Of a stretch of 64,000 bases of DNA, positions 21,681 to 64,000 are shown piece after piece. Under the pieces are notes generated by a model. That model had not been told where the DNA came from. It made no database searches and was given only the letters and a program-made list of their open reading frames with translations. The position numbers and the translations under genes are program-made. The DNA comes from Escherichia coli (GTDB lineage: Bacteria; Pseudomonadota; Gammaproteobacteria; Enterobacterales; Enterobacteriaceae), in NCBI RefSeq assembly GCF_013122565.1, contig NZ_CP053258.1, one strand, 5' to 3'. Numbering within the stretch: position 1 is the first letter of the stretch; every line of letters starts with the position of its first letter.

Positions 21681-21684
21681 AGTC

Positions 21685-24719: not shown

Positions 24720-24811
24720 ATGCATTTATTCTCACTCGTAAAGTTATGTGCTGAATGAGTTCCGATACATTTGTTTTTAATATAATTTCACGTGATCAAT
24801 GAGTGCTGTGT

Positions 24812-26143: not shown

Positions 26144-26186
26144 ATATAAATGGCCGGCAAACAGCACCGGCCTCTTTTCAGGAATG

Positions 26187-26501
26187 TTAAATCCCTGGCT
26201 GCAGAATACGAATATTCATCTCCAGCACGTCACCTTTTACGGCTTCGCTATACGCCTTCATGTGCGGGGTTTGCAGATGCGCTTCAAGATGCGCGATGCT
26301 TTCCCACTGCTCTATCATCACGATAGAATCCGGTGCCATAGACTGGAAACTCACGCCAGCAGCGCAATCCACCATTGGCGCATAGCCGTGGCAACCTTCT
26401 TCTTTCAGTACGGTTGGAACGATTTTAGCAAACTGATCCAATACCGCCTGACGGTGATGTTGACCAGGACGAGTACGGATTTCTGCGATTACGGTAAGCA
26501 T
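26187..26501 (-). CDS. ygiN: Quinol monooxygenase
   Basis: 104-aa ORF (MLTVIAEIRTRPG...) downstream of mdaB. Confidence 0.9.
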   Translation of the reverse strand: MLTVIAEIRTRPGQHHRQAVLDQFAKIVPTVLKEEGCHGYAPMVDCAAGVSFQSMAPDSIVMIEQWESIAHLEAHLQTPHMKAYSEAVKGDVLEMNIRILQPGI

Positions 26502-27113: not shown

Positions 27114-27222
27114 TTTTTAACCTCAAGGTGAGACGTTTTCCGACTATAGTACGTCACAGAGCGGTACGGTGAAATTAGCAAAATGTGCAAAGTCTTTTGC
27201 GAATTTAGCAAAAATCTTACCC

Positions 27223-36386: not shown

Positions 36387-37799
36387 ATGTCACTCAGTCG
36401 GCGTCAGTTCATTCAGGCATCGGGGATTGCACTTTGTGCAGGCGCTGTTCCCCTGAAGGCCAGCGCAGCCGGGCAACAGCAACCGCTACCCGTTCCGCCG
36501 CTGCTTGAATCTCGCCGTGGGCAACCGCTGTTTATGACTGTACAACGCGCGCACTGGTCATTTACGCCAGGGACACGCGCGTCGGTCTGGGGAATCAATG
36601 GTCGTTACCTGGGGCCGACTATCCGCGTCTGGAAGGGCGACGATGTTAAGCTTATTTACAGCAACCGGCTGACAGAAAATGTCTCAATGACGGTGGCCGG
36701 GCTACAGGTACCTGGCCCGCTGATGGGCGGGCCGGCACGGATGATGTCGCCAAACGCTGACTGGGCACCCGTACTGCCTATTCGCCAGAACGCAGCTACT
36801 CTGTGGTATCACGCCAATACTCCCAACCGCACGGCTCAGCAGGTCTATAACGGCCTTGCCGGAATGTGGCTGGTGGAAGATGAAGTCAGCAAGTCGCTGC
36901 CTATCCCCAACCATTATGGTGTGGATGATTTTCCGGTCATTATCCAGGATAAACGGCTGGATAACTTTGGTACGCCAGAATACAACGAACCGGGAAGCGG
37001 CGGCTTTGTTGGTGATACACTACTGGTTAACGGTGTGCAAAGCCCGTACGTTGAAGTCTCGCGTGGCTGGGTGCGCTTGCGACTGCTGAACGCGTCGAAC
37101 TCTCGTCGCTATCAACTACAGATGAGCGATGGTCGCCCGTTACATGTGATTTCTGGCGATCAGGGATTCCTGCCTGCTCCTGTATCGGTGAAGCAACTTT
37201 CGCTGGCACCGGGCGAGCGCCGCGAGATTCTGGTGGATATGAGCAACGGTGATGAAGTGTCGATCACCTGTGGCGAAGCGGCGAGCATTGTTGATCGTAT
37301 TCGTGGCTTCTTTGAGCCATCCAGCATTCTGGTTTCTACCCTGGTGCTAACGCTGCGCCCAACCGGCCTTCTGCCGCTGGTCACAGACAGTCTTCCTATG
37401 CGCTTGCTGCCAACTGAAATCATGGCCGGTTCGCCGATTCGCAGTCGCGATATCAGTCTGGGTGATGACCCGGGTATTAATGGACAACTGTGGGACGTCA
37501 ACCGTATTGATGTCACCGCGCAGCAAGGAACGTGGGAACGCTGGACGGTACGCGCGGACGAGCCGCAAGCGTTCCATATTGAAGGTGTGATGTTCCAGAT
37601 CCGTAACGTGAATGGCGCGATGCCGTTCCCGGAAGACAGAGGCTGGAAAGATACCGTTTGGGTTGACGGACAAGTGGAGCTGCTTGTTTATTTCGGTCAG
37701 CCTTCCTGGGCGCACTTCCCGTTCTACTTCAACAGTCAGACGCTGGAAATGGCGGACCGTGGCTCGATAGGGCAACTGTTAGTCAATCCGGTACCGTAA
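36387..37799 (+). CDS. ftsP: Cell division protein FtsP (SufI), multicopper-oxidase fold, Tat-secreted
   Basis: 470-aa ORF; twin-arginine signal SRRQFIQASG. Confidence 0.9.
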   Translation: MSLSRRQFIQASGIALCAGAVPLKASAAGQQQPLPVPPLLESRRGQPLFMTVQRAHWSFTPGTRASVWGINGRYLGPTIRVWKGDDVKLIYSNRLTENVSMTVAGLQVPGPLMGGPARMMSPNADWAPVLPIRQNAATLWYHANTPNRTAQQVYNGLAGMWLVEDEVSKSLPIPNHYGVDDFPVIIQDKRLDNFGTPEYNEPGSGGFVGDTLLVNGVQSPYVEVSRGWVRLRLLNASNSRRYQLQMSDGRPLHVISGDQGFLPAPVSVKQLSLAPGERREILVDMSNGDEVSITCGEAASIVDRIRGFFEPSSILVSTLVLTLRPTGLLPLVTDSLPMRLLPTEIMAGSPIRSRDISLGDDPGINGQLWDVNRIDVTAQQGTWERWTVRADEPQAFHIEGVMFQIRNVNGAMPFPEDRGWKDTVWVDGQVELLVYFGQPSWAHFPFYFNSQTLEMADRGSIGQLLVNPVP

Positions 37800-37849
37800 T
37801 GGACCAATTCATCGCTCCACTGAGTGGTGGGGCGATACAAGGATGAAAC

Positions 37850-39274
37850 ATGGATGGCATGGGATGGATGATTATTTTGGTACTTCCCTTTCTTTGGATG
37901 GGGTATGGACTGGCGTTGTTAATCATAACGGGGTGCGCTTTTGAATCTAAGGGGATTCGTCGCGTTCTGCTATGGGGTGTTGCGCCTCAGTTTATTATTC
38001 TTTGTATTGCGACCTTATTGCTTTACTGGACTAACTCTCGGTTAATTTATGTTTTTGTCTTTTTTCAGCCAGTTTTATGTATCACCACGGCAATTTTTTT
38101 ATTTGCTGGTAAAAAAACACAATATTCCAGATTGCTGTTTACTCTGTCTCATGTGATTTTTCTCGCTGGCGTTTTATATCAGGGGCATAGGGAAAATCTG
38201 CAATACATAATTAATAACGACTGGAAGGAATATAAAATAACGCGTTTATTTGAGCAAGTGCAGGACAATGGGGCGCATGCGCTGAATAACGATGTAACTT
38301 GTTCAGAATTAATGCAACTACTCACACTGGCAGCGGAACGTAATGACGTCAAAGAAGAGACGTTACGTACTCTTATTGCAAAGAAAGTATCGCCATTTCT
38401 GACAATGTCAGATAACTGTACGGGTGAGAATTCAGTAGAGACTTATTCTGTATATACTACGCCTTTTATGGCAGCTATTCAAAATCATAATATACATTCT
38501 GTCCGTTTTTTTAGTCAATTGCTTATGGGAAACTCATCAAAAGCAAAAAATAATCGTGACATTGTGCGCCGGGCAAACCCATTGATCGAAGTGTATAAAT
38601 ATAGTCATGGTTCTAAAAAACAACGTAAGTCAGGGTTAGAAATAAGTAAGCAATTAATGGCCATTATGCCAGAGCTATTAACAGATGCCGTCTGGCGTGC
38701 CGTGCTCAATGTATATGATGCCGATGCAGCACGATGGTTCTGGCGTAAGCAACCACCAGAAAATCGGTTGTATCGCTTAAAGGCTATGGCATTAATACCA
38801 CAAACGGATGCGCTATTGGCGGAGATTCGACAAACTCCAGAGGTACTGAATATCTCGTCTGAGGGAGACCTGAATGAAGAGGAGTTTCTCCATTTCTTAA
38901 TTTATGGAGGAGATACCGCTGTAATACATGCACTGGTTGAAAAAGGAATAGTTAACTGGCAGCACCTTATGAACATTGAGGGGTTTGATAAGGACCCCTT
39001 AATTTGGGCTATTTCAAAACTGGGAGAAAATGACAATGACCGGGAGGTTTTGACATTAATTATTCATGATATTAATGCGCAAAATGCACTGCCGGAGGAT
39101 CGCATAGCCAAATATTTAACGCGGACGGGATCAATGGGCGAGATTTTTTTAAAGGCGGGCGTACATTGTGATAAGTTATATGCGGCAATTGAGTCCGACA
39201 AAAAGCGAAATAATGGTATGTATAGTCAAAACGCCAGGGAAGAAGTGGATCGAGTATGTACGCCCGCAAAATAG
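37850..39274 (+). CDS. Hypothetical membrane protein, paralog A: about four N-terminal transmembrane helices and a helical (possibly ankyrin-like) C-terminal domain
   Basis: 474-aa ORF with AGGA ribosome-binding site; AT-rich codon usage; clear paralogy to the next ORF; not part of the K-12 gene order I recall. Confidence 0.6.
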   Translation: MDGMGWMIILVLPFLWMGYGLALLIITGCAFESKGIRRVLLWGVAPQFIILCIATLLLYWTNSRLIYVFVFFQPVLCITTAIFLFAGKKTQYSRLLFTLSHVIFLAGVLYQGHRENLQYIINNDWKEYKITRLFEQVQDNGAHALNNDVTCSELMQLLTLAAERNDVKEETLRTLIAKKVSPFLTMSDNCTGENSVETYSVYTTPFMAAIQNHNIHSVRFFSQLLMGNSSKAKNNRDIVRRANPLIEVYKYSHGSKKQRKSGLEISKQLMAIMPELLTDAVWRAVLNVYDADAARWFWRKQPPENRLYRLKAMALIPQTDALLAEIRQTPEVLNISSEGDLNEEEFLHFLIYGGDTAVIHALVEKGIVNWQHLMNIEGFDKDPLIWAISKLGENDNDREVLTLIIHDINAQNALPEDRIAKYLTRTGSMGEIFLKAGVHCDKLYAAIESDKKRNNGMYSQNAREEVDRVCTPAK

Positions 39275-39319
39275 GTGCAGTTTGGGGCGGTTAAGGAATA
39301 AAAAATAAAGGACTAAGCC

Positions 39320-40729
39320 ATGCGTAATGATGAATTTTTTCACCATTTTACTTTGACACTGTTTATGTTGGGTGGCTATCTACTGACTCTGTTCATCGTT
39401 ATCGTCCTTTCCTTTTTTAGCCCATTATGCCGAAAAATGGTCTTCCATGGCGCATTGCCGCAATTGATGATGGCAATAACGGTGTCGCTCGGTTTATATT
39501 ATCTGGAACGATACTCTTTTGCGGTATGGGCCTTACTGGATTCTTTTTGGATATTATTCCCCTGCCTGTTATTGATCATAGTGATAAATAAATGGTTAAA
39601 GCGTTCCCTTGTATGGATGAGTGCTTGTCATATTATGTGCTTGCTGTTGTTACTCTGGCAGGTGCAGCCCACGTTATTTAAAATCAGCTTTTATCACCAA
39701 CAATTAAGTCACCTGGCTCAGGCAGAGCAGGAAAATTTCCGCACACTGGATGCGATTCACGATACGCAACGTCTGGAAGCGATGTTACTGGTAGCGTTGA
39801 AATCCCCGGAAAATCAAACCTCTGAAAATGCCTTTCGCTATCTGTCAGGGCGAATCTCACCATTTGCTATACCTTCCATTGGCGATGAACAGTATTCTAC
39901 CCGCACTTTTTTTACGATTGCGTTGGAACATTACAACGCCCGCGCCATCCGCGCGTTTAGCCGCTTTCTGCAAGGAAATTCCTCAAAAGCGCAGGAATAT
40001 CGTGCGATTGTTCATCAAAAAAATCCACTGCAGCAGATGTACCGGGGAATAAGTTTGCCAATTCGTTTTAGTGAAGAAGAGATCGCCCGTCACATTATTG
40101 CCGCTCGCGAGATAAGCCTCACCTTACTGCCCCTGATGCCAGAATTATTAAACGAAGAGGCGTATGCAAATGTCATTGATGCTTATGACAGCGCAACGCT
40201 GAAGGCTTTTTGGCAGTTCCAGCTGCCGCCTACGCCGGTTTTGCGCCTGGAAGCGATGTCGGTAATTCCCATGACAGCGGCACTGGTTCAACAGGTGAGA
40301 GAGTCACCAAAACGGCTTGAACTGGAAGATAAAAGTGGCAGGACAGTACTAACTTACATCGTGCGCTTTGGAAATATTGCCGCAGTACAGGCACTGATTG
40401 ACGCTAATCTGATCGACTGGCAACGGCTTCGCCAATCGACAGAAAGGTCAACACCATTATTACTGGCGACCTGGCGACAAAAATACGACGATGATCATGT
40501 AATCTTCCCATTGATTTTAAAGGACATGCTGGCAAAAAATGCGCCACCCTCAGCAGAGGAAATAATGAACTGCCTTAAGGATGGTATGACCGCAGATGAT
40601 TTTTTCTCTGCCGGAATGAGCAACACGCAATTCTGTTCTGCGATTGAACAAAGCCTCCAGGCGAAAACGTCAGTATTACCGGCGAATCGATTACGCCATC
40701 TGCAATCCTCGCTGTGTGCAAAGCTGTAA
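39320..40729 (+). CDS. Hypothetical membrane protein, paralog B, same architecture as paralog A
   Basis: 469-aa ORF; shared blocks with paralog A, e.g. FSRFLQGNSSKAQEYRAIV vs FFSQLLMGNSSKAKNNRDIV and RLEAMSVIPMTAAL vs RLKAMALIPQTDAL. Confidence 0.6.
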   Translation: MRNDEFFHHFTLTLFMLGGYLLTLFIVIVLSFFSPLCRKMVFHGALPQLMMAITVSLGLYYLERYSFAVWALLDSFWILFPCLLLIIVINKWLKRSLVWMSACHIMCLLLLLWQVQPTLFKISFYHQQLSHLAQAEQENFRTLDAIHDTQRLEAMLLVALKSPENQTSENAFRYLSGRISPFAIPSIGDEQYSTRTFFTIALEHYNARAIRAFSRFLQGNSSKAQEYRAIVHQKNPLQQMYRGISLPIRFSEEEIARHIIAAREISLTLLPLMPELLNEEAYANVIDAYDSATLKAFWQFQLPPTPVLRLEAMSVIPMTAALVQQVRESPKRLELEDKSGRTVLTYIVRFGNIAAVQALIDANLIDWQRLRQSTERSTPLLLATWRQKYDDDHVIFPLILKDMLAKNAPPSAEEIMNCLKDGMTADDFFSAGMSNTQFCSAIEQSLQAKTSVLPANRLRHLQSSLCAKL

Positions 40730-40844
40730 CCAACCGGAAGTTAAGTCATCCGCTGAAAACATCGCATTAACTTTTCGATTTCTCTTTCGTTCCGGCTTAT
40801 AATCCCCGGCCTTTGATTATTTTTTTATCATTTCTGGAAGCAAA

Positions 40845-43064
40845 ATGAGCTCTATCTCCCTGATCCAACCGGATCGCGACCTGTTCTCCTGGCCGCAGTA
40901 CTGGGCCGCCTGTTTTGGACCGGCACCGTTTTTGCCGATGTCTCGTGAAGAGATGGATCAACTTGGCTGGGATAGCTGCGACATCATTTTGGTTACTGGC
41001 GACGCGTATGTCGATCACCCAAGCTTCGGGATGGCGATTTGCGGTCGTATGCTGGAAGCGCAGGGCTTTCGCGTCGGGATCATCGCCCAGCCGGACTGGA
41101 GCAGCAAAGACGACTTTATGCGTCTGGGTAAACCGAATCTGTTTTTCGGCGTTACTGCTGGCAACATGGATTCGATGATCAACCGCTATACCGCCGATCG
41201 CCGTTTACGTCATGACGATGCCTACACGCCGGATAACGTCGCGGGTAAGCGACCGGATCGCGCCACACTGGTTTATACCCAGCGTTGTAAAGAGGCGTGG
41301 AAAGATGTGCCGGTGATCCTCGGCGGTATTGAGGCTAGTCTGCGCCGTACCGCGCATTATGATTACTGGTCCGATACCGTGCGCCGTTCCGTGCTGGTGG
41401 ATTCCAAAGCCGACATGCTGATGTTCGGTAACGGTGAGCGTCCGTTGGTGGAGGTGGCGCACCGTCTGGCGATGGGCGAGCCGATTAGTGAAATCCGCGA
41501 TGTGCGTAATACTGCGATTATCGTAAAAGAGGCGTTGCCAGGCTGGAGCGGTGTGGATTCCACCCGTCTCGATACCCCAGGGAAAATCGACCCGATCCCG
41601 CATCCGTATGGCGAAGATCTGCCGTGCGCGGATAACAAACCTGTTGCGCCGAAAAAGCAGGAAGCGAAAGCCGTAACCGTGCAGCCGCCGCGCCCGAAAC
41701 CGTGGGAAAAAACCTACGTATTGCTGCCTTCTTTCGAGAAAGTGAAGGGCGATAAAGTGCTGTACGCCCATGCTTCGCGCATTCTGCACCACGAAACCAA
41801 CCCTGGCTGCGCCCGCGCATTGATGCAAAAACACGGCGACCGCTATGTGTGGATCAACCCGCCTGCTATCCCGCTTTCTACCGAAGAGATGGACAGCGTT
41901 TTTGCGCTGCCGTACAAGCGCGTGCCGCATCCGGCCTATGGCAATGCCCGTATTCCGGCTTACGAAATGATCCGTTTCTCGGTCAACATTATGCGCGGCT
42001 GCTTTGGCGGCTGCTCTTTCTGTTCTATCACTGAGCACGAAGGGCGCATTATTCAGAGCCGTTCGGAAGATTCGATCATTAATGAGATTGAAGCGATCCG
42101 CGACACCGTTCCAGGTTTTACGGGCGTAATTTCCGATCTCGGTGGGCCAACTGCCAACATGTATATGTTGCGCTGCAAATCGCCACGCGCTGAGCAAACC
42201 TGCCGCCGTTTGTCCTGCGTTTACCCGGATATTTGTCCGCATATGGACACGAACCACGAACCAACGATCAACCTCTATCGCCGTGCGCGTGATCTGAAAG
42301 GCATTAAAAAGATCCTGATTGCCTCTGGTGTGCGTTATGACATCGCCGTAGAAGATCCGCGCTATATCAAAGAACTGGCGACCCATCACGTCGGCGGTTA
42401 TCTGAAGATTGCCCCGGAACATACCGAAGAAGGGCCGTTATCGAAGATGATGAAGCCGGGCATGGGCAGCTATGACCGCTTTAAAGAGCTGTTCGATACC
42501 TACTCGAAACAGGCAGGTAAAGAGCAGTATCTGATCCCCTATTTCATCTCCGCGCACCCGGGTACGCGTGATGAAGATATGGTGAATCTGGCGCTGTGGC
42601 TGAAAAAGCATCGTTTCCGTCTCGACCAGGTACAGAACTTCTACCCATCGCCGCTGGCTAACTCGACCACCATGTATTACACCGGGAAAAACCCGCTGGC
42701 GAAGATTGGTTATAAGAGTGAAGACGTCTTCGTACCGAAGGGCGACAAGCAGCGTCGTTTGCATAAAGCGTTGTTGCGTTACCACGATCCGGCAAACTGG
42801 CCGTTAATCCGCCAGGCGCTGGAAGCGATGGGCAAAAAGCATCTGATTGGCAGCCGTCGCGATTGCTTAGTGCCTGCGCCAACCATTGAAGAGATGCGTG
42901 AAGCTCGTCGCCAGAACCGCAATACCCGTCCGGCGTTGACGAAACATACGCCGATGGCGACCCAGCGTCAGACGCCTGCTACGGCAAAAAAAGCGTCGTC
43001 TACGCAATCTCGTCCGGTGAATGCTGGTGCGAAGAAACGCCCTAAAGCGGCGGTTGGACGTTAA
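40845..43064 (+). CDS. ygiQ: Radical-SAM protein YgiQ (UPF0313)
   Basis: 739-aa ORF; radical-SAM cysteine motif CFGGCSFC; Lys/Arg-rich C-terminal tail. Confidence 0.9.
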
Positions 43065-43134
43065 ATTCGCTGTTCCCGGTAGCAGAATTGCTACCGGGGA
43101 TATTACTTCAGAATCTATCTCATTAGGCATTTAT

Positions 43135-43491
43135 TTATATGCCGAAATGTATCATGTGTTTATTTTCTCTGATAGCTTTTTGTATTACTTCTGATAAAGA
43201 AAGAAGTAAAGGATCGTGCTGGAATTTTGTATCCGATACAACAATATGAAGAAACTGATTTAATGAATCTGGTGGGATAATGGTGACTCCGTAGCGAGCA
43301 AGCGCATAACCTGGACGATTTAAACTATGATAGAAGGTTTTTATTGTCTGAAGTTGTTCCCACCATTCATCAATATAAATGTCATCATCAATATAAACGC
43401 AATTATATTTTTCAGGTTCATAGTGACCATAATCTTTATCAGTATCAATTTCATCAATAATACCAAATTCGGTTTTAATCATAATGACCAT
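43135..43491 (-). CDS. Small acidic hypothetical protein (118 aa)
   Basis: ORF with AT-rich composition downstream of the yqhG-like paralog on the same strand; no family recognised. Confidence 0.4.
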   Translation of the reverse strand: MVIMIKTEFGIIDEIDTDKDYGHYEPEKYNCVYIDDDIYIDEWWEQLQTIKTFYHSLNRPGYALARYGVTIIPPDSLNQFLHIVVSDTKFQHDPLLLSLSEVIQKAIRENKHMIHFGI

Positions 43492-43673
43492 GCTTTTTAA
43501 TTGTTATGCAGAAAAATGCCAGGAAAATGATTTAAATTGAATTTTCTGGGGTGATTTGTAATCTTGCTTGTCATATAGATGAGCCATCCAACGAGGTTGT
43601 GCAACATTTAATGAGGGAGACTGGACCAGAACAAGGCTGGGGATTAATATAGAAATGATTAACAATAGTGGCT

Positions 43674-44597
43674 TCATTTTGTCGTTGTTTCCATATTATT
43701 TTTAGCAGATTCCGCCTGTAATTTTTTGATTTCTTGTTCTCTGTGGCGTGCAAACTCTTTACGGGTCGTGACGCGTTCATACAAAGTAATATCGGTAATC
43801 CCCCCACTCCGCATGCCCAAATGACCTCGTATATCCATATCAAATGTTCCAGCTATCCGGACATAATCGCCATTTAGCTGACGAGCACGAGTTAAGGTCA
43901 CGACTGGGTTTGGGAAATCAATATCCAACCACACGCTATCACTTTGAACAAAATTTTCCCAGGATTCTTTATTTAAATATAAGGCGTTGCCTTCAAACTC
44001 AATATTGCCGACACCTTCGACAACCACCTTTTGCAAATGGTATTTTTCTGGCTGCGCAAGTAGTGCCGTCATTGATATCGAATGAGAAAAATGATCGCTT
44101 GAGGGTTCATTAATTACAGCTCTGCGTTTCATTCGCGTATCTTCACGTATTTCTGCCCGTAGACTGTTAGGCATTTCATTACCATCATCGATGTCTTCTA
44201 TTAGCCAGCGATGATTATCATTTTCACGAACCAGCATCAGCCCCAGTAACCGGTGGACATTGGTGCGATTTTGTTTGATAACCAACTGCAACAGTACATG
44301 CGTTCGGCCGCCATTTAGGTGTGTGCTTTGGATTATTTCTGCAGAAACGAAAGTATCATCAACACAGCGACACAAAAGATTATTATTCAGCCAGGGTGTC
44401 ATTTTGCCAGGAGTAGCGCTCATATTACTTCGCAAATCGAGACTGAATTCATCGGTTATTGGTATATCGCCATTACTGGTCAATGGTTGGTACAAACGTT
44501 CTATCGCTTCATTAATCGATTCTTTGCACAACACGTTTCCGCTGAAGCCACAGAACAGCAGAATAAAAAAACAGGTGTGCCAGCGTCGCATAATCAT
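43674..44597 (-). CDS. Secreted YqhG-like (DUF3828-like) protein, second paralog
   Basis: 307-aa ORF with signal peptide; shares motifs with the dkgA-proximal yqhG ORF (NHRWLIEDI vs NGRWVIDDI). Confidence 0.6.
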   Translation of the reverse strand: MIMRRWHTCFFILLFCGFSGNVLCKESINEAIERLYQPLTSNGDIPITDEFSLDLRSNMSATPGKMTPWLNNNLLCRCVDDTFVSAEIIQSTHLNGGRTHVLLQLVIKQNRTNVHRLLGLMLVRENDNHRWLIEDIDDGNEMPNSLRAEIREDTRMKRRAVINEPSSDHFSHSISMTALLAQPEKYHLQKVVVEGVGNIEFEGNALYLNKESWENFVQSDSVWLDIDFPNPVVTLTRARQLNGDYVRIAGTFDMDIRGHLGMRSGGITDITLYERVTTRKEFARHREQEIKKLQAESAKNNMETTTK

Positions 44598-44670
44598 GCC
44601 CTTATGTTTGGCTTTTTCTTAGCAAACAGCCTCTAACCCGGCAACTGACATGCTGCCGGGGATTTTTTTA

Positions 44671-44928
44671 TCATTCTGCGTACATACGCATGCAGCGCAG
44701 GCAATCAAAATAGTCCTGTGCATCAAGACGCGTATTGGCTCTGTTAGCTTCGGATTTGGCAGCATAGATTTGTGGGCGTAGTGCTTTCATATCCTGCTCA
44801 AGCCGGGCGATTTTGGCATTTAATGTTTGTACATTGCTCGCCAGTTGATTGACCTTTTGCTCATTGACGCAGCCACTGAGCAAGCAGGTTGCCAGAACAA
44901 CAGCTCCCACGGTGAAAATCGTTTTCAT
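44671..44928 (-). CDS. yqhH: Lpp-like small lipoprotein YqhH
   Basis: 85-aa ORF; lipobox LLSGC; coiled-coil; C-terminal Cys-rich tail. Confidence 0.85.
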
Positions 44929-53893: not shown

Positions 53894-54014
53894 CGTTTTT
53901 CTCCCTTCAGGTTCAACGTCCTTTAAGGGTAGACGCTCTCGATGCGTTGATAAGGGAACCAGGAAAATCCCTAAACCTCAGAATTATGCGACAAAGGTTT
54001 AATGGATATGTTGA

Positions 54015-54578
<564 letters not shown>

Positions 54579-54617
54579 TCTGATTCGGGCGCGGTTCTCG
54601 CGCCCGTTATTAACAGG

Positions 54618-55658
54618 TCATTTATCGGAAGACGCCTGCCACAGATTCAGCTCGCCATCGGCGATATGCTGATCAATCTGCGCCAGCTCCTCGGTGCTAA
54701 ATGTCAGATTATTCAGCGCCTGCACGTTCTCCTCTAGTTGCTCCGCGCGGCTGGCACCAATCAATACCGACGTCACGCGATCATCTTTCAGCAACCAGCT
54801 TAACGCCATTTGCGCCATTGATTGTCCACGATGCTGTGCCATGTCATTCAATAATCGCAGGCTGTTGAGGTTGGCTTCGGTGAGCATTTTCGGCGTCAGG
54901 CCACGAACTTTATTCCCTTCACGATGCATCCGTGAATCTTGCGGAATGCCGTTGAGATATTTTCCGGTCAGCAATCCCTGAGCCAGAGGAGTAAAGGCAA
55001 TGCAGCCCACGCCGTTATTTTGCAGGGTATCCAGCAGGCCGCTTTTATCCACCCAGCGGTTCAGCAAATTGTACGAAGGTTGATGAATTAACAACGGAAT
55101 TTTCCACTCGCGCAGTAACTCGACCATTTTTTGCGTCCGCTCTGGCGAGTAAGAGGAGATCCCGACATAAAGCGCCTTACCGCTTTGTACCGCATGAGCC
55201 AGCGCAGAGGCGGTTTCTTCCATCGGCGTATTTTCATCAACGCGATGAGAGTAAAAGATATCGACATACTCAAGCCCCATACGCTTCAGGCTTTGGTCGA
55301 GGCTGGCGAGCAGGTATTTACGTGAACCGCCAGAGCCGTAAGGGCCGGGCCACATATCGTAGCCAGCCTTGGTAGAGATAATCAGTTCATCGCGATAAGC
55401 GGCAAAATCCTCCCGCAGCAGGCGACCAAAGTTCTCTTCTGCGCTTCCTGGAGGCGGCCCGTAATTGTTGGCTAAATCAAAGTGCGTAATGCCTAAATCA
55501 AACGCTTTACGCAGGATCGCACGCTGTGATTCCAGCGCGTTAACGTGACCGAAATTGTGCCATAAACCGAGCGATAACGCGGGCAGGCGTAAACCGCTTT
55601 TTCCGCAATAACGGTACTGCATCTGCCCGTAACGCTCGGGATTCGCTAACCAGACCAT
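54618..55658 (-). CDS. gpr: L-glyceraldehyde 3-phosphate reductase (aldo-keto reductase)
   Basis: 346-aa ORF (MVWLANPERYGQMQYRYCGKSGLRLPALSLG...). Confidence 0.9.
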   Translation of the reverse strand: MVWLANPERYGQMQYRYCGKSGLRLPALSLGLWHNFGHVNALESQRAILRKAFDLGITHFDLANNYGPPPGSAEENFGRLLREDFAAYRDELIISTKAGYDMWPGPYGSGGSRKYLLASLDQSLKRMGLEYVDIFYSHRVDENTPMEETASALAHAVQSGKALYVGISSYSPERTQKMVELLREWKIPLLIHQPSYNLLNRWVDKSGLLDTLQNNGVGCIAFTPLAQGLLTGKYLNGIPQDSRMHREGNKVRGLTPKMLTEANLNSLRLLNDMAQHRGQSMAQMALSWLLKDDRVTSVLIGASRAEQLEENVQALNNLTFSTEELAQIDQHIADGELNLWQASSDK

Positions 55659-55811
55659 GACCTCTCCTTTCCACCATTCAATTTCGAAACAATGTTTCTA
55701 GTTTAGCGATTCATCAGTGCGTATCCCGTAGTCTGGCTCACAGAGTGACGAAAAACTGGGCAAAAACACGTGCTTATGCTTTGCTTAAAAAAACACCAAG
55801 TGAGGAGTGCA

Positions 55812-56702
55812 ATGATGCCGCGTTTAACCGCCAAAGATTTCCCACAAGAGTTGCTGGATTACTACGACTATTACGCTCACGGGAAAATCTCGAAACGTGA
55901 GTTCCTCAACCTTGCGGCGAAGTATGCGGTAGGCGGGATGACGGCATTAGCGTTGTTTGATTTGCTCAAGCCAAATTATGCGCTGGCGACTCAGGTAGAG
56001 TTTACCGACCCGGAAATTGTTGCTGAGTACATCACGTATCCTTCGCCAAATGGTCACGGCGAGGTGCGGGGTTATCTGGTGAAGCCCGCAAAGATGAGCG
56101 GCAAAACGCCAGCCGTAGTGGTGGTGCATGAGAATCGTGGACTGAATCCGTATATCGAAGATGTGGCACGGCGAGTGGCGAAGGCGGGGTATATCGCCCT
56201 GGCACCTGACGGCTTAAGTTCCGTTGGAGGTTATCCGGGAAATGATGATAAAGGTCGTGAGCTGCAACAGCAGGTTGATCCAACCAAACTGATGAATGAT
56301 TTCTTTGCCGCAATTGAGTTTATGCAACGCTATCCGCAAGCGACAGGCAAAGTGGGTATTACTGGATTTTGCTATGGCGGTGGCGTATCGAACGCGGCGG
56401 CTGTCGCGTATCCGGAACTGGCCTGCGCGGTGCCGTTTTATGGTCGACAGGCACCCACCGCCGATGTGGCGAAGATTGAAGCGCCTTTACTGCTCCACTA
56501 CGCGGAACTGGACACCCGAATCAACGAGGGCTGGCCCGCTTACGAGGCGGCGTTGAAAGCCAATAATAAGGTTTATGAGGCGTATATCTATCCGGGGGTT
56601 AATCACGGATTCCATAATGATTCCACGCCCCGTTATGACAAATCTGCCGCCGATCTTGCCTGGCAAAGAACGCAGAAATGGTTCGATAAATATCTCTCCT
56701 GA
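55812..56702 (+). CDS. yghX: Dienelactone hydrolase-family protein, apparently intact
   Basis: ORF 55770-56702; start placed at MMPRLTAKDF with GAGGAG ribosome-binding site; uninterrupted 296-aa frame. Confidence 0.75.
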   Translation: MMPRLTAKDFPQELLDYYDYYAHGKISKREFLNLAAKYAVGGMTALALFDLLKPNYALATQVEFTDPEIVAEYITYPSPNGHGEVRGYLVKPAKMSGKTPAVVVVHENRGLNPYIEDVARRVAKAGYIALAPDGLSSVGGYPGNDDKGRELQQQVDPTKLMNDFFAAIEFMQRYPQATGKVGITGFCYGGGVSNAAAVAYPELACAVPFYGRQAPTADVAKIEAPLLLHYAELDTRINEGWPAYEAALKANNKVYEAYIYPGVNHGFHNDSTPRYDKSAADLAWQRTQKWFDKYLS

Positions 56703-56820
56703 TAGGTTTATCTCTTACGGGATTACGTCTTAAACAAGCATGAAAAAATAGCGTGCGCAAAAGTCGTTCTTTGCCTAAAATATCGCTATATATAACAATA
56801 TATAGCGAATGAGGTGAACG

Positions 56821-57108
56821 ATGAATAACCATTTTGGTAAAGGCTTAATGGCGGGATTAAAAGCAACGCATGCCGACAGTGCGGTTAATGTGACTAAATA
56901 CTGTGCCGATTATAAACGCGGTTTTGTATTAGGCTACTCACACCGGATGTACGAAAAGACCGGAGATCGCCAGCTTAGCGCCTGGGAAGCGGGTATTCTG
57001 ACGCGCCGCTATGGACTGGATAAAGAGATGGTAATGGATTTCTTTCGTGAGAATAATTCCTGTTCTACGTTGCGCTTTTTTATGGCCGGTTATCGCCTCG
57101 AAAATTGA
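56821..57108 (+). CDS. yghW: DUF2623-family protein YghW
   Basis: 95-aa ORF upstream of the hyb operon. Confidence 0.8.
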
Positions 57109-57296
57109 TCAAACATACGTATTATCTTGCTTTAATTAATTACACTAATGCTTCTTCCCTTCGTTTTAGCGCCCCGCCGCAGTATCATGATATCGATAAC
57201 CATAATAAATGTGTGGTAAATGGCGCATCGATCGCATTATTGATTTTGCGATTGAGGCAAAATATATGCCAGGTCTTCGCAACGGAATAACAATAA

Positions 57297-58415
57297 ATGA
57301 CTGGAGATAACACCCTCATCCATTCTCACGGCATTAACCGTCGTGATTTCATGAAGCTTTGTGCAGCATTAGCCGCCACCATGGGGTTAAGTAGCAAAGC
57401 CGCTGCAGAGATGGCCGAATCGGTTACTAACCCGCAGCGTCCGCCAGTTATCTGGATTGGCGCGCAGGAGTGCACCGGTTGTACGGAATCTCTGCTTCGT
57501 GCAACGCATCCAACGGTAGAAAACCTCGTGCTGGAGACTATCTCTCTGGAATATCACGAAGTGCTTTCCGCCGCCTTCGGTCATCAGGTCGAAGAGAACA
57601 AACATAACGCTCTTGAGAAGTACAAAGGGCAGTATGTGTTAGTGGTGGATGGTTCCATCCCATTAAAAGATAATGGGATTTATTGCATGGTCGCCGGTGA
57701 GCCGATTGTGGATCACATCCGCAAAGCGGCGGAAGGCGCAGCAGCGATTATCGCTATCGGTTCCTGCTCTGCGTGGGGCGGTGTTGCCGCAGCTGGAGTT
57801 AACCCGACTGGCGCAGTCAGCCTGCAAGAAGTTCTGCCAGGCAAAACCGTTATCAACATTCCGGGCTGCCCGCCGAACCCGCACAACTTCCTCGCGACCG
57901 TTGCGCACATCATCACTTACGGCAAGCCGCCGAAACTGGATGACAAAAACCGTCCGACCTTCGCCTATGGCCGTCTGATTCACGAACACTGCGAACGTCG
58001 CCCGCACTTCGATGCTGGTCGTTTTGCCAAAGAGTTCGGTGATGAAGGCCACCGCGAAGGCTGGTGCCTGTACCACCTCGGCTGTAAAGGGCCAGAAACT
58101 TACGGCAACTGCTCAACGCTGCAATTCTGCGATGTTGGCGGTGTGTGGCCGGTGGCGATTGGTCACCCGTGCTATGGCTGTAACGAAGAAGGTATCGGCT
58201 TCCATAAAGGCATCCATCAGCTTGCCAACGTCGAAAATCAGACTCCGCGTTCACAGAAACCGGACGTTAATGCTAAAGAAGGCGGCAACGTCTCGGCAGG
58301 CGCTATTGGTTTGCTCGGCGGTGTGGTTGGGCTGGTTGCCGGTGTCAGCGTGATGGCGGTGCGTGAACTGGGTCGTCAGCAAAAGAAAGATAACGCTGAC
58401 TCACGGGGAGAATAA
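57297..58415 (+). CDS. hybO: Hydrogenase-2 small subunit (Tat signal)
   Basis: 372-aa ORF; twin-arginine motif RRDFMK; Fe-S cysteine clusters. Confidence 0.95.
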
Positions 58416-58417
58416 CC

Positions 58418-59404
58418 GTGAACAGACGTAATTTTATTAAAGCAGCCTCCTGCGGGGCATTGCTGACGGGCGCGCTGCCGTCTGTCAGTCATGCGGCTGC
58501 TGAAAACCGCCCGCCAATTCCGGGATCGCTGGGGATGTTGTACGACTCGACCTTGTGCGTTGGCTGCCAGGCTTGCGTCACCAAGTGTCAGGATATCAAT
58601 TTCCCTGAACGTAACCCGCAAGGGGAACAGACCTGGTCGAACAACGACAAACTGTCGCCGTATACCAATAACATCATTCAGGTGTGGACCAGCGGCACAG
58701 GGGTCAACAAAGACCAGGAGGAGAACGGCTACGCGTACATTAAGAAACAGTGTATGCACTGCGTCGATCCGAACTGTGTCTCTGTGTGCCCGGTCTCTGC
58801 ACTGAAAAAAGATCCGAAAACCGGCATTGTCCATTACGACAAAGATGTGTGCACCGGCTGCCGTTACTGCATGGTCGCCTGCCCATACAATGTGCCGAAG
58901 TACGACTACAACAACCCGTTTGGTGCGCTGCATAAGTGCGAGCTGTGCAACCAGAAAGGTGTGGAACGTCTCGATAAAGGCGGTCTGCCTGGCTGCGTAG
59001 AAGTGTGCCCGGCGGGCGCGGTGATTTTTGGTACGCGTGAAGAGCTGATGGCGGAGGCGAAAAAACGTCTGGCGCTGAAGCCTGGCAGCGAATACCACTA
59101 TCCGCGTCAGACGCTGAACTCTGGTGACACTTACCTGCATACGGTGCCGAAATATTATCCGCATCTGTACGGCGAGAAAGAGGGCGGCGGTACTCAGGTT
59201 CTGGTACTGACGGGTGTGCCTTATGAAAATCTCGACCTGCCGAAACTGGACGATCTTTCTACCGGTGCGCGTTCCGAAAATATTCAACACACCCTGTATA
59301 AAGGCATGATGCTACCACTGGCTGTGCTGGCGGGCTTAACCGTGCTGGTTCGTCGCAACACCAAAAACGACCATCACGACGGAGGAGACGATCATGAGTC
59401 ATGA
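58418..59404 (+). CDS. hybA: Hydrogenase-2 ferredoxin-type Fe-S subunit
   Basis: 328-aa ORF; Tat motif RRNFIK; four CxxCxxCxxxCP ferredoxin motifs. Confidence 0.95.
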
Positions 59405-60572
59405 TCCACAACCGCTGGGCGGCAAAATCATCAGTAAACCGGTCATGATTTTTGGACCGTTAATCGTCATCTGTATGCTCCTGATTGTGAAGCGTCTGGT
59501 GTTCGGTCTGGGCTCTGTCTCTGACCTGAACGGCGGCTTCCCGTGGGGCGTGTGGATCGCGTTTGACCTGCTGATTGGCACCGGCTTTGCCTGTGGCGGC
59601 TGGGCGCTGGCGTGGGCGGTATACGTCTTTAACCGTGGGCAATACCATCCGCTGGTGCGTCCGGCGCTGTTGGCGAGTCTGTTCGGTTACTCACTGGGTG
59701 GCTTGTCGATCACTATCGACGTGGGTCGCTACTGGAACCTGCCGTACTTCTACATTCCGGGTCACTTCAACGTGAACTCGGTACTGTTCGAGACGGCGGT
59801 CTGTATGACCATCTACATCGGCGTGATGGCTCTGGAGTTTGCTCCGGCACTGTTTGAACGTCTGGGCTGGAAGGTGTCGCTACAGCGTCTGAACAAGGTG
59901 ATGTTCTTCATCATCGCGCTCGGCGCGCTGTTGCCGACCATGCACCAGTCTTCAATGGGGTCACTGATGATCTCGGCGGGCTACAAGGTGCATCCGCTGT
60001 GGCAGAGCTATGAAATGTTGCCGCTGTTCTCGCTGCTGACGGCGTTCATCATGGGCTTCTCGATTGTCATCTTTGAAGGTTCGCTGGTGCAGGCGGGTCT
60101 GCGTGGCAACGGTCCGGATGAAAAGAGCCTGTTCGTCAAGCTGACCAACACCATCAGTGTGTTGCTGGCAATTTTCATCGTGCTGCGCTTTGGCGAGCTT
60201 ATCTATCGCGACAAGCTGTCGTTAGCGTTTGCCGGTGACTTCTACTCCGTGATGTTCTGGATTGAAGTCCTGCTGATGCTCTTCCCGCTGGTCGTTCTGC
60301 GTGTGGCGAAGCTGCGTAATGATTCCCGCATGCTGTTCCTGTCAGCACTGAGCGCACTGTTAGGTTGTGCAACCTGGCGTCTGACCTATTCGCTGGTGGC
60401 ATTCAACCCGGGCGGCGGTTACGCCTACTTCCCGACCTGGGAAGAACTGTTGATTTCTATTGGTTTTGTGGCTATTGAGATTTGCGCTTACATCGTACTC
60501 ATTCGTCTACTGCCGATACTTCCTCCTTTAAAACAAAACGATCATAATCGTCATGAGGCGAGCAAAGCATGA
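59394..60572 (+). CDS. hybB: Hydrogenase-2 integral membrane subunit
   Basis: 392-aa polytopic ORF overlapping hybA by 11 nt. Confidence 0.95.
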
Positions 60573-62272
60573 GCCAGAGAATTACTATTGATCCGGTAAC
60601 CCGTATTGAGGGGCATTTACGCATCGATTGCGAAATCGAAAATGGCGTCGTTTCGAAAGCATGGGCTTCCGGTACCATGTGGCGCGGCATGGAAGAGATC
60701 GTGAAAAACCGCGATCCGCGCGATGCATGGATGATTGTGCAACGTATCTGTGGCGTATGTACTACCACTCACGCGCTGTCTTCCGTTCGTGCGGCAGAAA
60801 GTGCGCTGAATATCGACGTTCCGGTTAACGCGCAATACATCCGTAACATCATTCTGGCTGCGCACACCACGCATGACCATATCGTTCATTTCTATCAGCT
60901 TTCGGCGCTGGACTGGGTGGACATCACTTCTGCACTGCAAGCTGATCCAGCCAAAGCCTCCGAAATGCTGAAAGGTGTTTCGACCTGGCATCTGAACAGT
61001 CCGGAAGAGTTCACCAAAGTTCAGAACAAGATCAAAGATCTGGTTGCCAGCGGTCAGTTGGGTATTTTCGCCAATGGCTACTGGGGTCACCCGGCGATGA
61101 AACTGCCGCCGGAAGTGAACCTGATTGCGGTAGCGCACTACCTGCAAGCGCTGGAGTGCCAGCGTGACGCTAACCGCGTCGTGGCGCTGCTGGGCGGTAA
61201 AACGCCGCACATTCAGAACCTGGCGGTAGGTGGGGTCGCTAACCCGATCAACCTCGACGGTCTGGGCGTGCTGAACCTTGAGCGCCTGATGTACATCAAG
61301 TCTTTCATCGACAAGCTGAGCGACTTTGTTGAGCAGGTTTATAAGGTTGATACCGCCGTTATCGCCGCTTTCTACCCGGAATGGCTGACGCGCGGTAAAG
61401 GTGCAGTGAACTACCTGAGCGTGCCGGAGTTTCCAACCGACAGCAAAAACGGCAGCTTCCTGTTCCCGGGCGGCTACATTGAGAATGCGGATCTGTCCTC
61501 GTATCGTCCGATCACTTCTCATTCCGATGAATACCTGATTAAAGGCATTCAGGAGAGCGCGAAGCACTCCTGGTATAAAGACGAAGCGCCGCAGGCTCCG
61601 TGGGAAGGCACCACCATTCCGGCTTATGATGGTTGGTCTGACGACGGTAAATACTCCTGGGTGAAATCACCGACTTTCTACGGCAAAACGGTAGAAGTGG
61701 GTCCGCTGGCTAACATGCTGGTGAAACTGGCGGCAGGACGTGAGTCTACCCAGAACAAACTGAATGAAATCGTTGCGATTTATCAGAAACTGACTGGCAA
61801 CACGCTGGAAGTGTCACAGCTGCACTCCACGCTGGGCCGTATTATTGGTCGTACCGTTCACTGCTGCGAATTGCAGGATATCCTGCAAAATCAATACAGT
61901 GCACTGATCACCAATATCGGCAAAGGCGATCACACCACCTTCGTGAAACCGAACATTCCGGCAACGGGTGAGTTCAAAGGTGTTGGCTTCCTCGAAGCGC
62001 CGCGCGGTATGCTCTCTCACTGGATGGTGATCAAAGACGGTATCATCAGCAACTACCAGGCAGTTGTTCCATCAACCTGGAACTCTGGCCCGCGTAACTT
62101 CAATGATGACGTCGGTCCTTACGAGCAGTCGCTGGTGGGTACACCGGTTGCTGATCCGAATAAACCGCTGGAAGTGGTGCGTACCATTCACTCCTTCGAC
62201 CCGTGCATGGCCTGTGCGGTACACGTAGTGGATGCCGACGGCAACGAAGTGGTTTCAGTGAAGGTTCTGTAA
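60569..62272 (+). CDS. hybC: Hydrogenase-2 large [NiFe] subunit
   Basis: 567-aa ORF; N-terminal RICGVCTTTH and C-terminal DPCMACAVH nickel-binding motifs. Confidence 0.95.
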   Translation: MSQRITIDPVTRIEGHLRIDCEIENGVVSKAWASGTMWRGMEEIVKNRDPRDAWMIVQRICGVCTTTHALSSVRAAESALNIDVPVNAQYIRNIILAAHTTHDHIVHFYQLSALDWVDITSALQADPAKASEMLKGVSTWHLNSPEEFTKVQNKIKDLVASGQLGIFANGYWGHPAMKLPPEVNLIAVAHYLQALECQRDANRVVALLGGKTPHIQNLAVGGVANPINLDGLGVLNLERLMYIKSFIDKLSDFVEQVYKVDTAVIAAFYPEWLTRGKGAVNYLSVPEFPTDSKNGSFLFPGGYIENADLSSYRPITSHSDEYLIKGIQESAKHSWYKDEAPQAPWEGTTIPAYDGWSDDGKYSWVKSPTFYGKTVEVGPLANMLVKLAAGRESTQNKLNEIVAIYQKLTGNTLEVSQLHSTLGRIIGRTVHCCELQDILQNQYSALITNIGKGDHTTFVKPNIPATGEFKGVGFLEAPRGMLSHWMVIKDGIISNYQAVVPSTWNSGPRNFNDDVGPYEQSLVGTPVADPNKPLEVVRTIHSFDPCMACAVHVVDADGNEVVSVKVL

Positions 62273-62766
62273 TGCGTATTTTAGTCTTAGGGGTCGGCAA
62301 TATTTTGCTGACCGATGAAGCCATCGGCGTGCGGATTGTCGAAGCGTTAGAGCAACGATACATTCTGCCGGATTATGTTGAGATCCTCGATGGCGGCACG
62401 GCGGGAATGGAGCTGCTTGGCGACATGGCAAATCGCGATCATCTGATTATTGCGGATGCCATTGTGTCGAAGAAGAGCGCGCCGGGAACGATGATGATCC
62501 TGCGGGATGAAGAAGTTCCGGCGTTGTTTACCAACAAAATATCTCCGCATCAGCTTGGCCTGGCCGACGTATTGTCGGCCCTGCGCTTCACCGGTGAGTT
62601 TCCGAAAAAGCTGACCCTGGTCGGCGTGATCCCGGAATCGCTGGAGCCACACATCGGCTTAACACCGACGGTTGAAGCAATGATTGAACCTGCGCTTGAG
62701 CAGGTTCTGGCTGCGCTGCGCGAATCAGGCGTGGAAGCCATCCCACGGGAGGCGATTCATGACTGA
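62272..62766 (+). CDS. hybD: Hydrogenase-2 maturation endopeptidase
   Basis: ORF 62203-62766; start placed at MRILVLGVGN (164 aa), overlapping the hybC stop by 1 nt (TAATG). Confidence 0.9.
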   Translation: MRILVLGVGNILLTDEAIGVRIVEALEQRYILPDYVEILDGGTAGMELLGDMANRDHLIIADAIVSKKSAPGTMMILRDEEVPALFTNKISPHQLGLADVLSALRFTGEFPKKLTLVGVIPESLEPHIGLTPTVEAMIEPALEQVLAALRESGVEAIPREAIHD

Positions 62767-63247
62767 AGAGATAGCAGGTTTCCAGACCTCCCCGAAGGCG
62801 CAAGTACAGGCAGCGTTTGAAGAAATTGCCCGGCGTTCGATGCACGATCTCTCTTTTCTGCATCCTTCAATGCCGGTGTATGTTTCTGACTTTACGCTGT
62901 TTGAAGGTCAGTGGACGGGGTGTGTGATCACCCCGTGGATGCTGAGTGCGGTTATCTTCCCCGGCCCGGATCAACTCTGGCCGCTGCGCAAAGTGAGTGA
63001 AAAAATTGGTCTACAACTGCCGTATGGCACTATGACCTTTACCGTTGGCGAACTGGACGGTGTTTCGCAATATCTCTCCTGTTCGCTGATGTCGCCGCTT
63101 TCGCATAGCATGTCGATTGAAGAGGGCCAACGCCTGACGGATGACTGCGCACGAATGATCCTTTCGCTGCCAGTCACCAATCCGGATGTACCACACGCAG
63201 GGCGTCGCGCCCTGCTGTTTGGCCGCAGGAGTGGCGAAAATGCATGA
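62759..63247 (+). CDS. hybE: Hydrogenase-2 operon chaperone HybE
   Basis: ORF 62684-63247; start placed at MTEEIAGFQTSPKAQ (162 aa). Confidence 0.85.
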   Translation: MTEEIAGFQTSPKAQVQAAFEEIARRSMHDLSFLHPSMPVYVSDFTLFEGQWTGCVITPWMLSAVIFPGPDQLWPLRKVSEKIGLQLPYGTMTFTVGELDGVSQYLSCSLMSPLSHSMSIEEGQRLTDDCARMILSLPVTNPDVPHAGRRALLFGRRSGENA

Positions 63248-63581
63248 GTTGTCGCTTTGCCAGAGCGCCCTTGAAATTATCCAACGGCAGGCGGAGCAGC
63301 ACGATGTTAAGCGCGTCACCGCCGTGTGGCTGGAAATTGGCGCGCTCTCCTGCGTTGAGGAGAGCGCCGTCCGTTTTAGTTTTGAAATTGTCTGCCACGG
63401 AACGGTGGCGCAAGGGTGCGATTTACATATCGTCTATAAACCCGCCCAGGCCTGGTGCTGGGATTGCAGCCAGGTGGTGGAGATTCATCAGCACGATGCG
63501 CAGTGTCCGATCTGTCATGGCGAGCGGTTGCGTGTCGATACCGGCGATTCGCTGATCGTCAAAAGTATTGAAGTTGAATAA
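63240..63581 (+). CDS. hybF: Hydrogenase nickel-incorporation protein (HypA-like)
   Basis: ORF 63186-63581; start placed at MHELSLCQSALEI (113 aa); CxxC...CxxC zinc motif. Confidence 0.9.
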   Translation: MHELSLCQSALEIIQRQAEQHDVKRVTAVWLEIGALSCVEESAVRFSFEIVCHGTVAQGCDLHIVYKPAQAWCWDCSQVVEIHQHDAQCPICHGERLRVDTGDSLIVKSIEVE

Positions 63582-63593
63582 CCGGAGTTAACA

Positions 63594-63842
63594 ATGTGTA
63601 TTGGCGTTCCAGGCCAGGTGCTGGCTGTCGGTGAAGATATTCACCAGCTTGCGCAGGTTGAAGTATGTGGTATCAAGCGCGACGTGAATATCGCCCTGAT
63701 TTGTGAAGGTAACCCTGCCGATCTGCTGGGCCAGTGGGTGCTGGTACACGTCGGATTTGCCATGAGCATCATCGACGAAGATGAAGCCAAAGCCACATTA
63801 GACGCGCTGCGCCAAATGGATTACGACATTACCAGCGCGTGA
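63594..63842 (+). CDS. hybG: Hydrogenase maturation factor (HypC-like)
   Basis: 82-aa ORF beginning MCIGVPGQV (conserved N-terminal Cys). Confidence 0.9.
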
Positions 63843-63854
63843 TGATTAGCTTTT

Positions 63855-63935
63855 GTAGGCCTGATAAGACGCGATAGCGTCGCATCAGGCATTGTGCTCG
63901 ATTGCCGGATGCGGCGTGAATGCCTTATCCGGCCT
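63855..63935. repeat. REP palindromic units downstream of hybG
   Basis: gtaggcctgataagacgcgatagcgtcgcatcaggc and gccggatgcggcgtgaatgccttatccggcc. Confidence 0.8.
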
Positions 63936-64000
63936 GGATGGCTTGCTGCGACGAACACCAATCCTTACCCCTGACGCTTATCTTCCGTATTCGTCTCGAA

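Follow-up and report, generated by a model that had tools for sequence, protein, structure and literature searches.

Gene content and organisation of the hyb locus

The window, a 64,000-nucleotide stretch of Escherichia coli DNA, carries eight uninterrupted open reading frames on one strand in the order hybO-A-B-C-D-E-F-G (Table 1). They span 57297-63842 on the plus strand, exactly the interval and the set of eight intact genes given in the initial annotation. Every ORF length is divisible by three, no internal stop occurs, and all eight lengths are exactly those of K-12. From O/A to F/G, the junctions measure +2, -11, -4, -1, -8, -8 and +12 nt, so that O/A and F/G are short spacers rather than overlaps. 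The overlaps listed earlier for hybA/hybB (11 nt), hybB/hybC (4 nt) and hybC/hybD (1 nt) all hold, and the further ones placed at hybD/hybE and hybE/hybF, for which no length had been stated, are 8 nt each.

Table 1 Features of the hyb locus, with positions in the window and supporting model scores.
Feature	Product or description	Length	Position	Strand	Evidence
yghW-hybO intergenic region	hyb promoter/5′ leader region	188 nt	57109-57296	+	1 of 188 bases differs from K-12 (57292)
hybO	Hyd-2 small subunit, Tat signal and C-terminal membrane anchor	372 aa	57297-58415	+	ATG start; NF007779 equivalog, 834.7 bits (cut-off 659), 1-372/372
hybA	Hyd-2 ferredoxin-type electron-relay subunit, Tat signal	328 aa	58418-59404	+	GTG start; NF008134 equivalog, 596.8 bits (cut-off 263)
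hybB	Integral membrane NrfD-type quinone-interacting subunit	392 aa	59394-60572	+	NF008133 equivalog, 625.1 bits (cut-off 450); Pfam NrfD
hybC	Hyd-2 [NiFe] large subunit precursor	567 aa	60569-62272	+	NF007778 equivalog, 1272.4 bits (cut-off 969)
hybD	Maturation endopeptidase for HybC	164 aa	62272-62766	+	NF007777 equivalog, 311.5 bits (cut-off 190)
hybE	Hyd-2-specific assembly/Tat proofreading chaperone	162 aa	62759-63247	+	NF007776 equivalog, 285.8 bits (cut-off 188); identical to K-12
hybF	HypA-family nickel metallochaperone	113 aa	63240-63581	+	NF009046, 244.4 bits; TIGR00100 HypA, 147.9 bits; both above cut-off
hybG	HypC-family Fe(CN)2CO-delivery chaperone	82 aa	63594-63842	+	NF007721 equivalog, 173.5 bits (cut-off 115)
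REP/BIME element	Palindromic element between convergent hybG and yghU		63858-63934		Rfam naRNA4 (RF02564); near-identical to K-12

All eight proteins match NCBIfam models over their full length and above the curated cut-offs, and the expected Pfam domains are present. Seven were scored against Hyd-2 equivalog models, and HybF against a HypA/HybF subfamily model and the HypA equivalog. Pseudogenisation or frameshifting was ruled out, as none was found in the reading frames or on alignment with K-12; a gap-free, codon-by-codon comparison with K-12 and with the best-matching genome gave equal lengths and no indels.

Structural subunits and maturation proteins

HybO contains RRDFMK at residues 15-20 and HybA RRNFIK at residues 3-8, and both proteins end in a hydrophobic stretch. 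The twin-arginine signals reported initially are therefore preserved, and both subunits combine them with a C-terminal membrane anchor, as described for Hyd-2 by Beaton et al. (2018; PMC5902676), the source also for the subunit roles used here. HybO is 100% identical to its K-12 counterpart and matches the small chains of the crystallised HybOC core (PDB 6EHQ/6EN9) along the length present in the crystal; the crystal constructs lack the Tat signal and transmembrane helix, whereas the native hybO encodes both.

HybA has 16 cysteines in four groups (47/50/53/57, 112/115/120/124, 145/148/151/155 and 174/177/193/197), retains Pro125 and matches Pfam Fer4_11. Its GTG start is kept in four other genera. 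HybB, also 100% identical to K-12, falls in the NrfD/PsrC membrane family, and the locus encodes no haem-b subunit of the HyaC type.

The [NiFe] ligand motifs of HybC, likewise noted at the outset, are RICGVC (59-64) and DPCMACAVH (544-552), which supply Cys61, Cys64, Cys546, Cys549 and His552; all four Ni-Fe cysteines are shared with the crystallised core. Beyond residue 552 lies a 15-residue C-terminal tail, VVDADGNEVVSVKVL, and the mature chain 6EHQ_L stops at residue 552. Against chain L of 6EN9, 565 of 567 HybC residues are identical, the two exceptions (T128A and A416S) lying outside the metal-ligand motifs.

Among the maturation proteins, HybF has the N-terminal MHE together with CWDC (73-76) and CPIC (89-92), the zinc-site motifs of HypA. 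HybG begins with the Met-Cys of the HypC Cys2 motif and is identical to K-12.

Comparison with K-12 and with hydrogenase-1

The K-12 MG1655 hybOABCDEFG operon (b2997-b2990) has the same genes, order, lengths, start codons (including GTG for hybA), overlaps and neighbours. HybO, HybB, HybE and HybG are identical between the two strains, and the other four proteins carry one or two substitutions each, six in total and all conservative: K234N in HybA, T128A and A416S in HybC, N69S in HybD, and V11L and L91I in HybF. Upstream lie gpr-yghX-yghW and downstream yghU, in the order of K-12 and of the best-hit genome, and the window is colinear with K-12. The operon therefore sits between yghW and yghU, as expected for E. 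coli; the neighbouring yghX is intact here and a pseudogene in K-12. Together, the family models, the 98-100% amino-acid identity to K-12 proteins and PDB Hyd-2 chains, and the K-12 gene neighbours bear out the original reading of a complete hydrogenase-2 operon, including the alignment with characterised Hyd-2 proteins proposed as its check.

E. coli hydrogenase-1 (hyaABCDEF) is likewise a membrane-bound uptake [NiFe]-hydrogenase, with a Tat-dependent small subunit, the same large-subunit ligand motifs and a dedicated endopeptidase. The Hyb proteins, however, fall short of the Hyd-1 cut-offs, with 508.6 bits for the large-subunit model (cut-off 1101) and 96.8 bits for the protease model (cut-off 261), and so are not those of Hyd-1. 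Furthermore, Hyd-2 uses HybA and HybB, a ferredoxin and an NrfD-type membrane protein, where Hyd-1 has the cytochrome b HyaC.

Distribution and selection

Of 5426 complete E. coli genomes, 5416 carry the hyb region, in keeping with the earlier description of the locus as ordinary core content, and the exact sequences of all eight proteins are already in public databases under the same names. The operon is already known and adds nothing new to the E. coli core. Its nucleotide sequence differs from K-12 at 110 positions (about 1.7%), nearly all of them third codon positions; 104 differences are synonymous and six non-synonymous, and the resulting dN/dS of 0.017 indicates continuing purifying selection rather than decay.

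The best identity over the region among the 5426 complete RefSeq E. coli genomes was only 98.6%, which raised the question of a recoded or engineered genome. This was rejected: the third-position synonymous changes are mixed and run in both directions, TCG and TCA serine codons are kept, and over 3761 bases the window matches the assembly of a sequenced isolate (SRR11451224) at 100% identity. Judged by its gene identities, intact frames, motifs, conservation and purifying selection, the locus is almost certainly the native hybOABCDEFG operon of a natural E. coli isolate, which encodes the respiratory [NiFe]-hydrogenase-2 together with the maturation factors dedicated to it; the biochemical roles are assigned by analogy with the K-12 literature.

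More unusual content lies elsewhere in the window, in the form of rare accessory insertions around ygiQ. A PADLOC search of these accessory ORFs for defence systems returned no matches.

Leader and RNA elements

A consensus scan near the hybO leader found a single, weak sigma-70-like site (57098-57125), the count for the region being no better than in shuffled sequence, and no convincing sigma-70 site upstream of hybO. The 20 bases upstream of hybO hold no clear Shine-Dalgarno match, and the same is true in K-12. Internal promoters and terminators were rejected, as consensus matches did not exceed the shuffled level: 4 promoter-like and 10 terminator-like sites were counted, where shuffling gives 6.2 ± 2.3 and 7.6 ± 3.1, respectively.

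An Rfam search of 54000-64000 (E ≤ 1) for overlooked non-coding RNA within or next to the operon gave only the REP-derived naRNA4 element 3′ of hybG; its minus-strand score of 85.7 bits exceeds the gathering threshold (59.5), whereas the plus-strand score of 58.1 bits does not.

Within hybF, a perfect 10-bp stem-loop (63342-63367), significant in E. coli (z = -3.77), is followed by a T-rich stretch. The hairpin is degraded in Salmonella, Citrobacter and Kosakonia and shows no compensatory changes. It was therefore rejected as a conserved element, and is probably a by-product of the sequence coding for A-L-S-C-V-E-E-S-A. We accord a very small chance to a speculative pair of alternatives, namely that the stem-loop is an Escherichia-specific RNA element (an internal attenuator, or a processing or stabilising site) setting hybG levels relative to the genes before it, or else that the rare HybC A416S and HybF V11L variants measurably alter Hyd-2 maturation or catalysis.

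Probable translational coupling

Coupled cistrons classically have stop and start codons that overlap by 1, 4 or 8 nt. In the hyb operon, neighbouring genes are joined by overlaps or very short spacers, and Shine-Dalgarno-like sequences lie 10-14 nt upstream of seven of the eight starts, inside the preceding genes; that of hybB, for example, is GGAGGAG, 10-13 nt 5′ of the start. Junction architecture and nucleotide sequences are kept in Salmonella, Citrobacter, E. marmotae and Kosakonia.

The same ribosome-binding sites could support de novo initiation, and the overlaps might then reflect mere genome compaction or drift, each cistron initiating independently at its own site. We consider this unlikely. 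Besides the match to the classical geometry, Salmonella, Citrobacter and E. marmotae share exactly the same overlap lengths (+2, -11, -4, -1, -8, -8). Moreover, the O/A, A/B and B/C junctions are conserved almost base for base, against a hyb gene identity of no more than 77-89% in Salmonella, Citrobacter and Kosakonia, which indicates that the junctions are constrained by more than their coding function. Translational coupling of neighbouring hyb cistrons is thus a reasonable inference from the way the genes overlap, from the Shine-Dalgarno-like sequences that lie within upstream genes and from cross-genus junction conservation.

Proposed function of the hyb operon

In the proposed scheme, HybC (with the Ni-Fe active site) and HybO (with three Fe-S clusters) would form the periplasmic catalytic core. 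HybC would receive the Fe(CN)2CO group from HybG and nickel from HybF, after which HybD would remove its C-terminal tail by cutting after His552, while HybE would retain the precursor until assembly is complete. The folded HybOC dimer would cross the membrane on the HybO Tat signal, HybA being exported by its own. Electrons would pass through the four [4Fe-4S] clusters of HybA to the membrane protein HybB, where exchange with the menaquinone pool would take place. Adjacent cistrons are probably coupled in translation through their short overlaps and spacers, with a Shine-Dalgarno-like sequence in the gene before. From the 98-100% identity to characterised K-12 proteins, we infer that the enzyme is a bidirectional, O2-sensitive H2:menaquinone oxidoreductase.

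An intact-looking operon could still be functionally impaired, had the six substitutions damaged activity or maturation. The exact HybC and HybF alleles are indeed rare (2 and 1-2 contigs, respectively), and the 98.6% ceiling on identity among complete genomes may be read in the same direction. Yet all six changes are conservative and outside the ligand motifs, and several are found elsewhere: Citrobacter has HybC 128A, Kosakonia has HybA 234N and other E. coli have HybF 91I, while the exact HybD sequence is found on at least 1000 public contigs. With purifying selection continuing across the genes, impairment is extremely improbable.

The significance of an intact Hyd-2 operon at this locus goes little beyond annotation. 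The strict conservation of its junctions across genera lends small support to the idea that Hyd-2 subunit and maturase stoichiometry may be set at translation. Judging from its intact operon, the isolate has most probably retained anaerobic respiration driven by H2, which is of relevance to how enterobacteria colonise the gut.

Gene content and identity of the hyb operon

An ORF list was compiled over positions 55000-64000, and the coordinates, junctions, start codons and stop codons were then checked directly. Eight uninterrupted reading frames, hybO to hybG, lie on the plus strand at exactly the operon coordinates of the initial annotation. The junctions (spacers positive, overlaps negative) measure O/A +2 nt, A/B -11, B/C -4, C/D -1, D/E -8, E/F -8 and F/G +12, O/A and F/G being short spacers rather than overlaps. 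The overlap lengths proposed earlier for A/B, B/C and C/D were exact, and the D/E and E/F overlaps, for which no size had been given, are both present.

Features of the hydrogenase-2 (Hyd-2) locus
Feature	Position	Strand	Details
hybO	57297-58415	+	ATG start, 372 aa
hybA	58418-59404	+	GTG start, 328 aa
hybB	59394-60572	+	392 aa
hybC	60569-62272	+	567 aa
hybD	62272-62766	+	164 aa
hybE	62759-63247	+	162 aa
hybF	63240-63581	+	113 aa
hybG	63594-63842	+	82 aa
REP/BIME element	63858-63934	both	Rfam naRNA4 match; downstream of hybG

All eight proteins match their own Hyd-2-specific NCBIfam models over the full length, with scores higher than the curated cut-offs (HybC, 1272 bits against NF007778, cut-off 969; HybO, 835 bits against NF007779, cut-off 659), while the Hyd-1 NCBIfam models score far under theirs. 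Pfam returned the expected domains throughout: Oxidored_q6 and NiFe_hyd_SSU_C (HybO), Fer4_11 (HybA), NrfD (HybB), NiFeSe_Hases (HybC), HycI (HybD), NiFe-hyd_HybE (HybE), HypA (HybF) and HupF_HypC (HybG).

The Tat signals and NiFe ligand motifs, described as preserved in the initial annotation, were all located: RRDFMK in HybO (residues 15-20), RRNFIK in HybA (3-8), and RICGVC (59-64) and DPCMACAVH (544-552) in HybC. A 15-residue tail, VVDADGNEVVSVKVL, comes after the last of these; in 6EHQ_L, the mature chain of the crystal, the sequence stops at residue 552. HybO and HybA both carry a hydrophobic C-terminal anchor segment, and HybA has 16 cysteines in four groups of four, with Pro125 also present. 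HybF has an N-terminal MHE and two CxxC motifs, and HybG begins Met-Cys. These motifs agree with the description of Hyd-2 by Beaton et al. 2018 (PMC5902676). Compared with 6EN9_L, the large chain of crystallised E. coli Hyd-2, HybC is identical at 565/567 residues, both differences falling outside the ligand regions, and HybO is matched by the Hyd-2 small chains of the PDB.

Divergence from K-12 and origin of the sequence

A gap-free, codon-by-codon alignment with K-12 MG1655 gave equal lengths with no indel and no frameshift; frameshifts on alignment were the outcome that the initial annotation had named as refuting it. There are 110 nucleotide differences, nearly all at third codon positions (104 synonymous, 6 non-synonymous). 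The six substitutions are HybA K234N, HybC T128A and A416S, HybD N69S, and HybF V11L and L91I; HybO, HybB, HybE and HybG are identical to their K-12 counterparts. Because dN/dS is 0.017 (Nei-Gojobori count), the comparison indicates strong purifying selection on the hyb genes. Several of the substituted residues have natural precedents: 128A in the HybC of Citrobacter, 234N in the HybA of Kosakonia and 91I in the HybF of other E. coli. HybC 416S and HybF 11L were not seen among the other sampled sequences.

The best identity over the hyb region among complete E. coli genomes is 98.6%. An engineered or recoded genome was considered as the source of this low value and rejected, since no serine codon has been eliminated and the synonymous changes are mixed, with substitutions running either way. 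The exact sequences of all eight proteins are already public under E. coli names, including the rare HybC and HybF alleles (QJU26997.1, QJU27000.1), and positions 60240-64000 are identical to the assembly of run SRR11451224 at 3761/3761 compared bases. On these grounds, the source is a natural E. coli lineage with few representatives among the complete genomes of RefSeq.

Other differences from K-12 within the window

The entire window is colinear with K-12 3,197,925 to 3,139,558 in reversed orientation. A 3-kb insertion between ftsP and ygiQ (37800-40770) holds tandem paralogous ORFs, 26% identical, at 37850-39274 (474 aa) and 39320-40729 (469 aa), for which Pfam gave only sub-threshold ankyrin-repeat matches and NCBIfam and PADLOC none. 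Between ygiQ and yqhH lies a 1.5-kb insertion (43104-44637), whose flanking K-12 matches overlap by ~30 bp (3158889-3158918); its minus-strand ORFs, 43135-43491 (118 aa) and 43674-44597 (307 aa), have no Pfam or PADLOC match. Only 7/5426 complete E. coli genomes cover at least 80% of the 7-kb stretch containing both (37700-44700); identity in these is 96.7%, and the genes are annotated there as hypothetical proteins.

An 8.3-kb accessory island between parE and ygiN (17852-26187), carried by 404/5426 genomes, encodes a DUF2608 protein, KdgM-family porin, phytase-like esterase, PfkB/ribokinase-like kinase, SIS-domain protein, ADP-ribosylglycohydrolase, GntR regulator and GPH-family symporter; it looks catabolic, for a glycoside- or nucleoside-like substrate. 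The K-12 fimbrial operon ygiL-yqiGHI (3185070-3191708, with IS2 in K-12) is missing at 6217-6290, and ygiZ (3171833-3172426) at 27217-27223. At 2651-3382, a sib/ibs-type repeat unit is present in two tandem copies (SibD/IbsD and SibE/IbsE in K-12), each ~92.5% identical to the other copy's K-12 counterpart, giving off-diagonal matches in the K-12 comparison.

Nearer the operon, yghX is an intact ORF (55770-56702) of the dienelactone-hydrolase family with an N-terminal YqhI-like segment, annotated in the best-hit genome as a 295-aa YghX hydrolase; the K-12 copy is a pseudogene, broken into yghX' and a small ORF, yqhI. Upstream of hybO, a single base distinguishes the 188-nt region from its K-12 counterpart, and a simple promoter scan there found nothing over shuffle background. 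Beyond hybG, the convergent gene yghU starts, 3' end first, at ~63965, as mapped from the best-hit locus.

Conservation of the junctions and of the operon

A Shine-Dalgarno-like sequence lies 10-14 nt upstream of seven of the eight starts, within the preceding gene; none was found upstream of hybO, here or in K-12. The hyb loci of Salmonella enterica, Citrobacter amalonaticus, Escherichia marmotae and Kosakonia sacchari were compared. The junction pattern +2, -11, -4, -1, -8, -8 is identical in the first three, the sole difference in K. sacchari being D/E at -11, and all four keep the hybA GTG start. Across these loci the sequences at O/A, A/B and B/C are almost base-identical, even though the hyb genes of Salmonella, Citrobacter and Kosakonia show just 77-89% identity. 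The comparison is good evidence of constraint on the junctions and fits a putative translational coupling of the hyb cistrons.

The hybF gene carries a stem-loop (GCGCTCTCCT-GCGTTG-AGGAGAGCGC, 63342-63367) with a perfect 10-bp stem and 6 nt in the loop, ahead of a T-rich stretch; the surrounding 60-nt segment folds at -26.2 kcal/mol (z = -3.77). K-12 has the identical stem and E. marmotae keeps it with one G-U pair, whereas third-position changes without compensation have eroded it in Salmonella, Citrobacter and Kosakonia. Rather than a conserved RNA element, the stem-loop is probably a side effect of the coding sequence.

Megablast detected region 57100-64000, whose matched features are annotated hybO to hybG, in 5419 of the 5426 complete E. 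coli genomes, with coverage of at least 80% in 5416. An IS621 (IS110-family) insertion interrupts the matching stretch in two genomes of bovine E. coli. Gene order, lengths and overlaps are identical to those of the best hit and K-12, where the operon is flanked by gpr-yghX-yghW on one side and yghU-gss on the other. The protein models, the synteny and the distribution bear out the operon's location and identification in the initial reading, and the intact hyb operon is already known, ordinary core content of E. coli.
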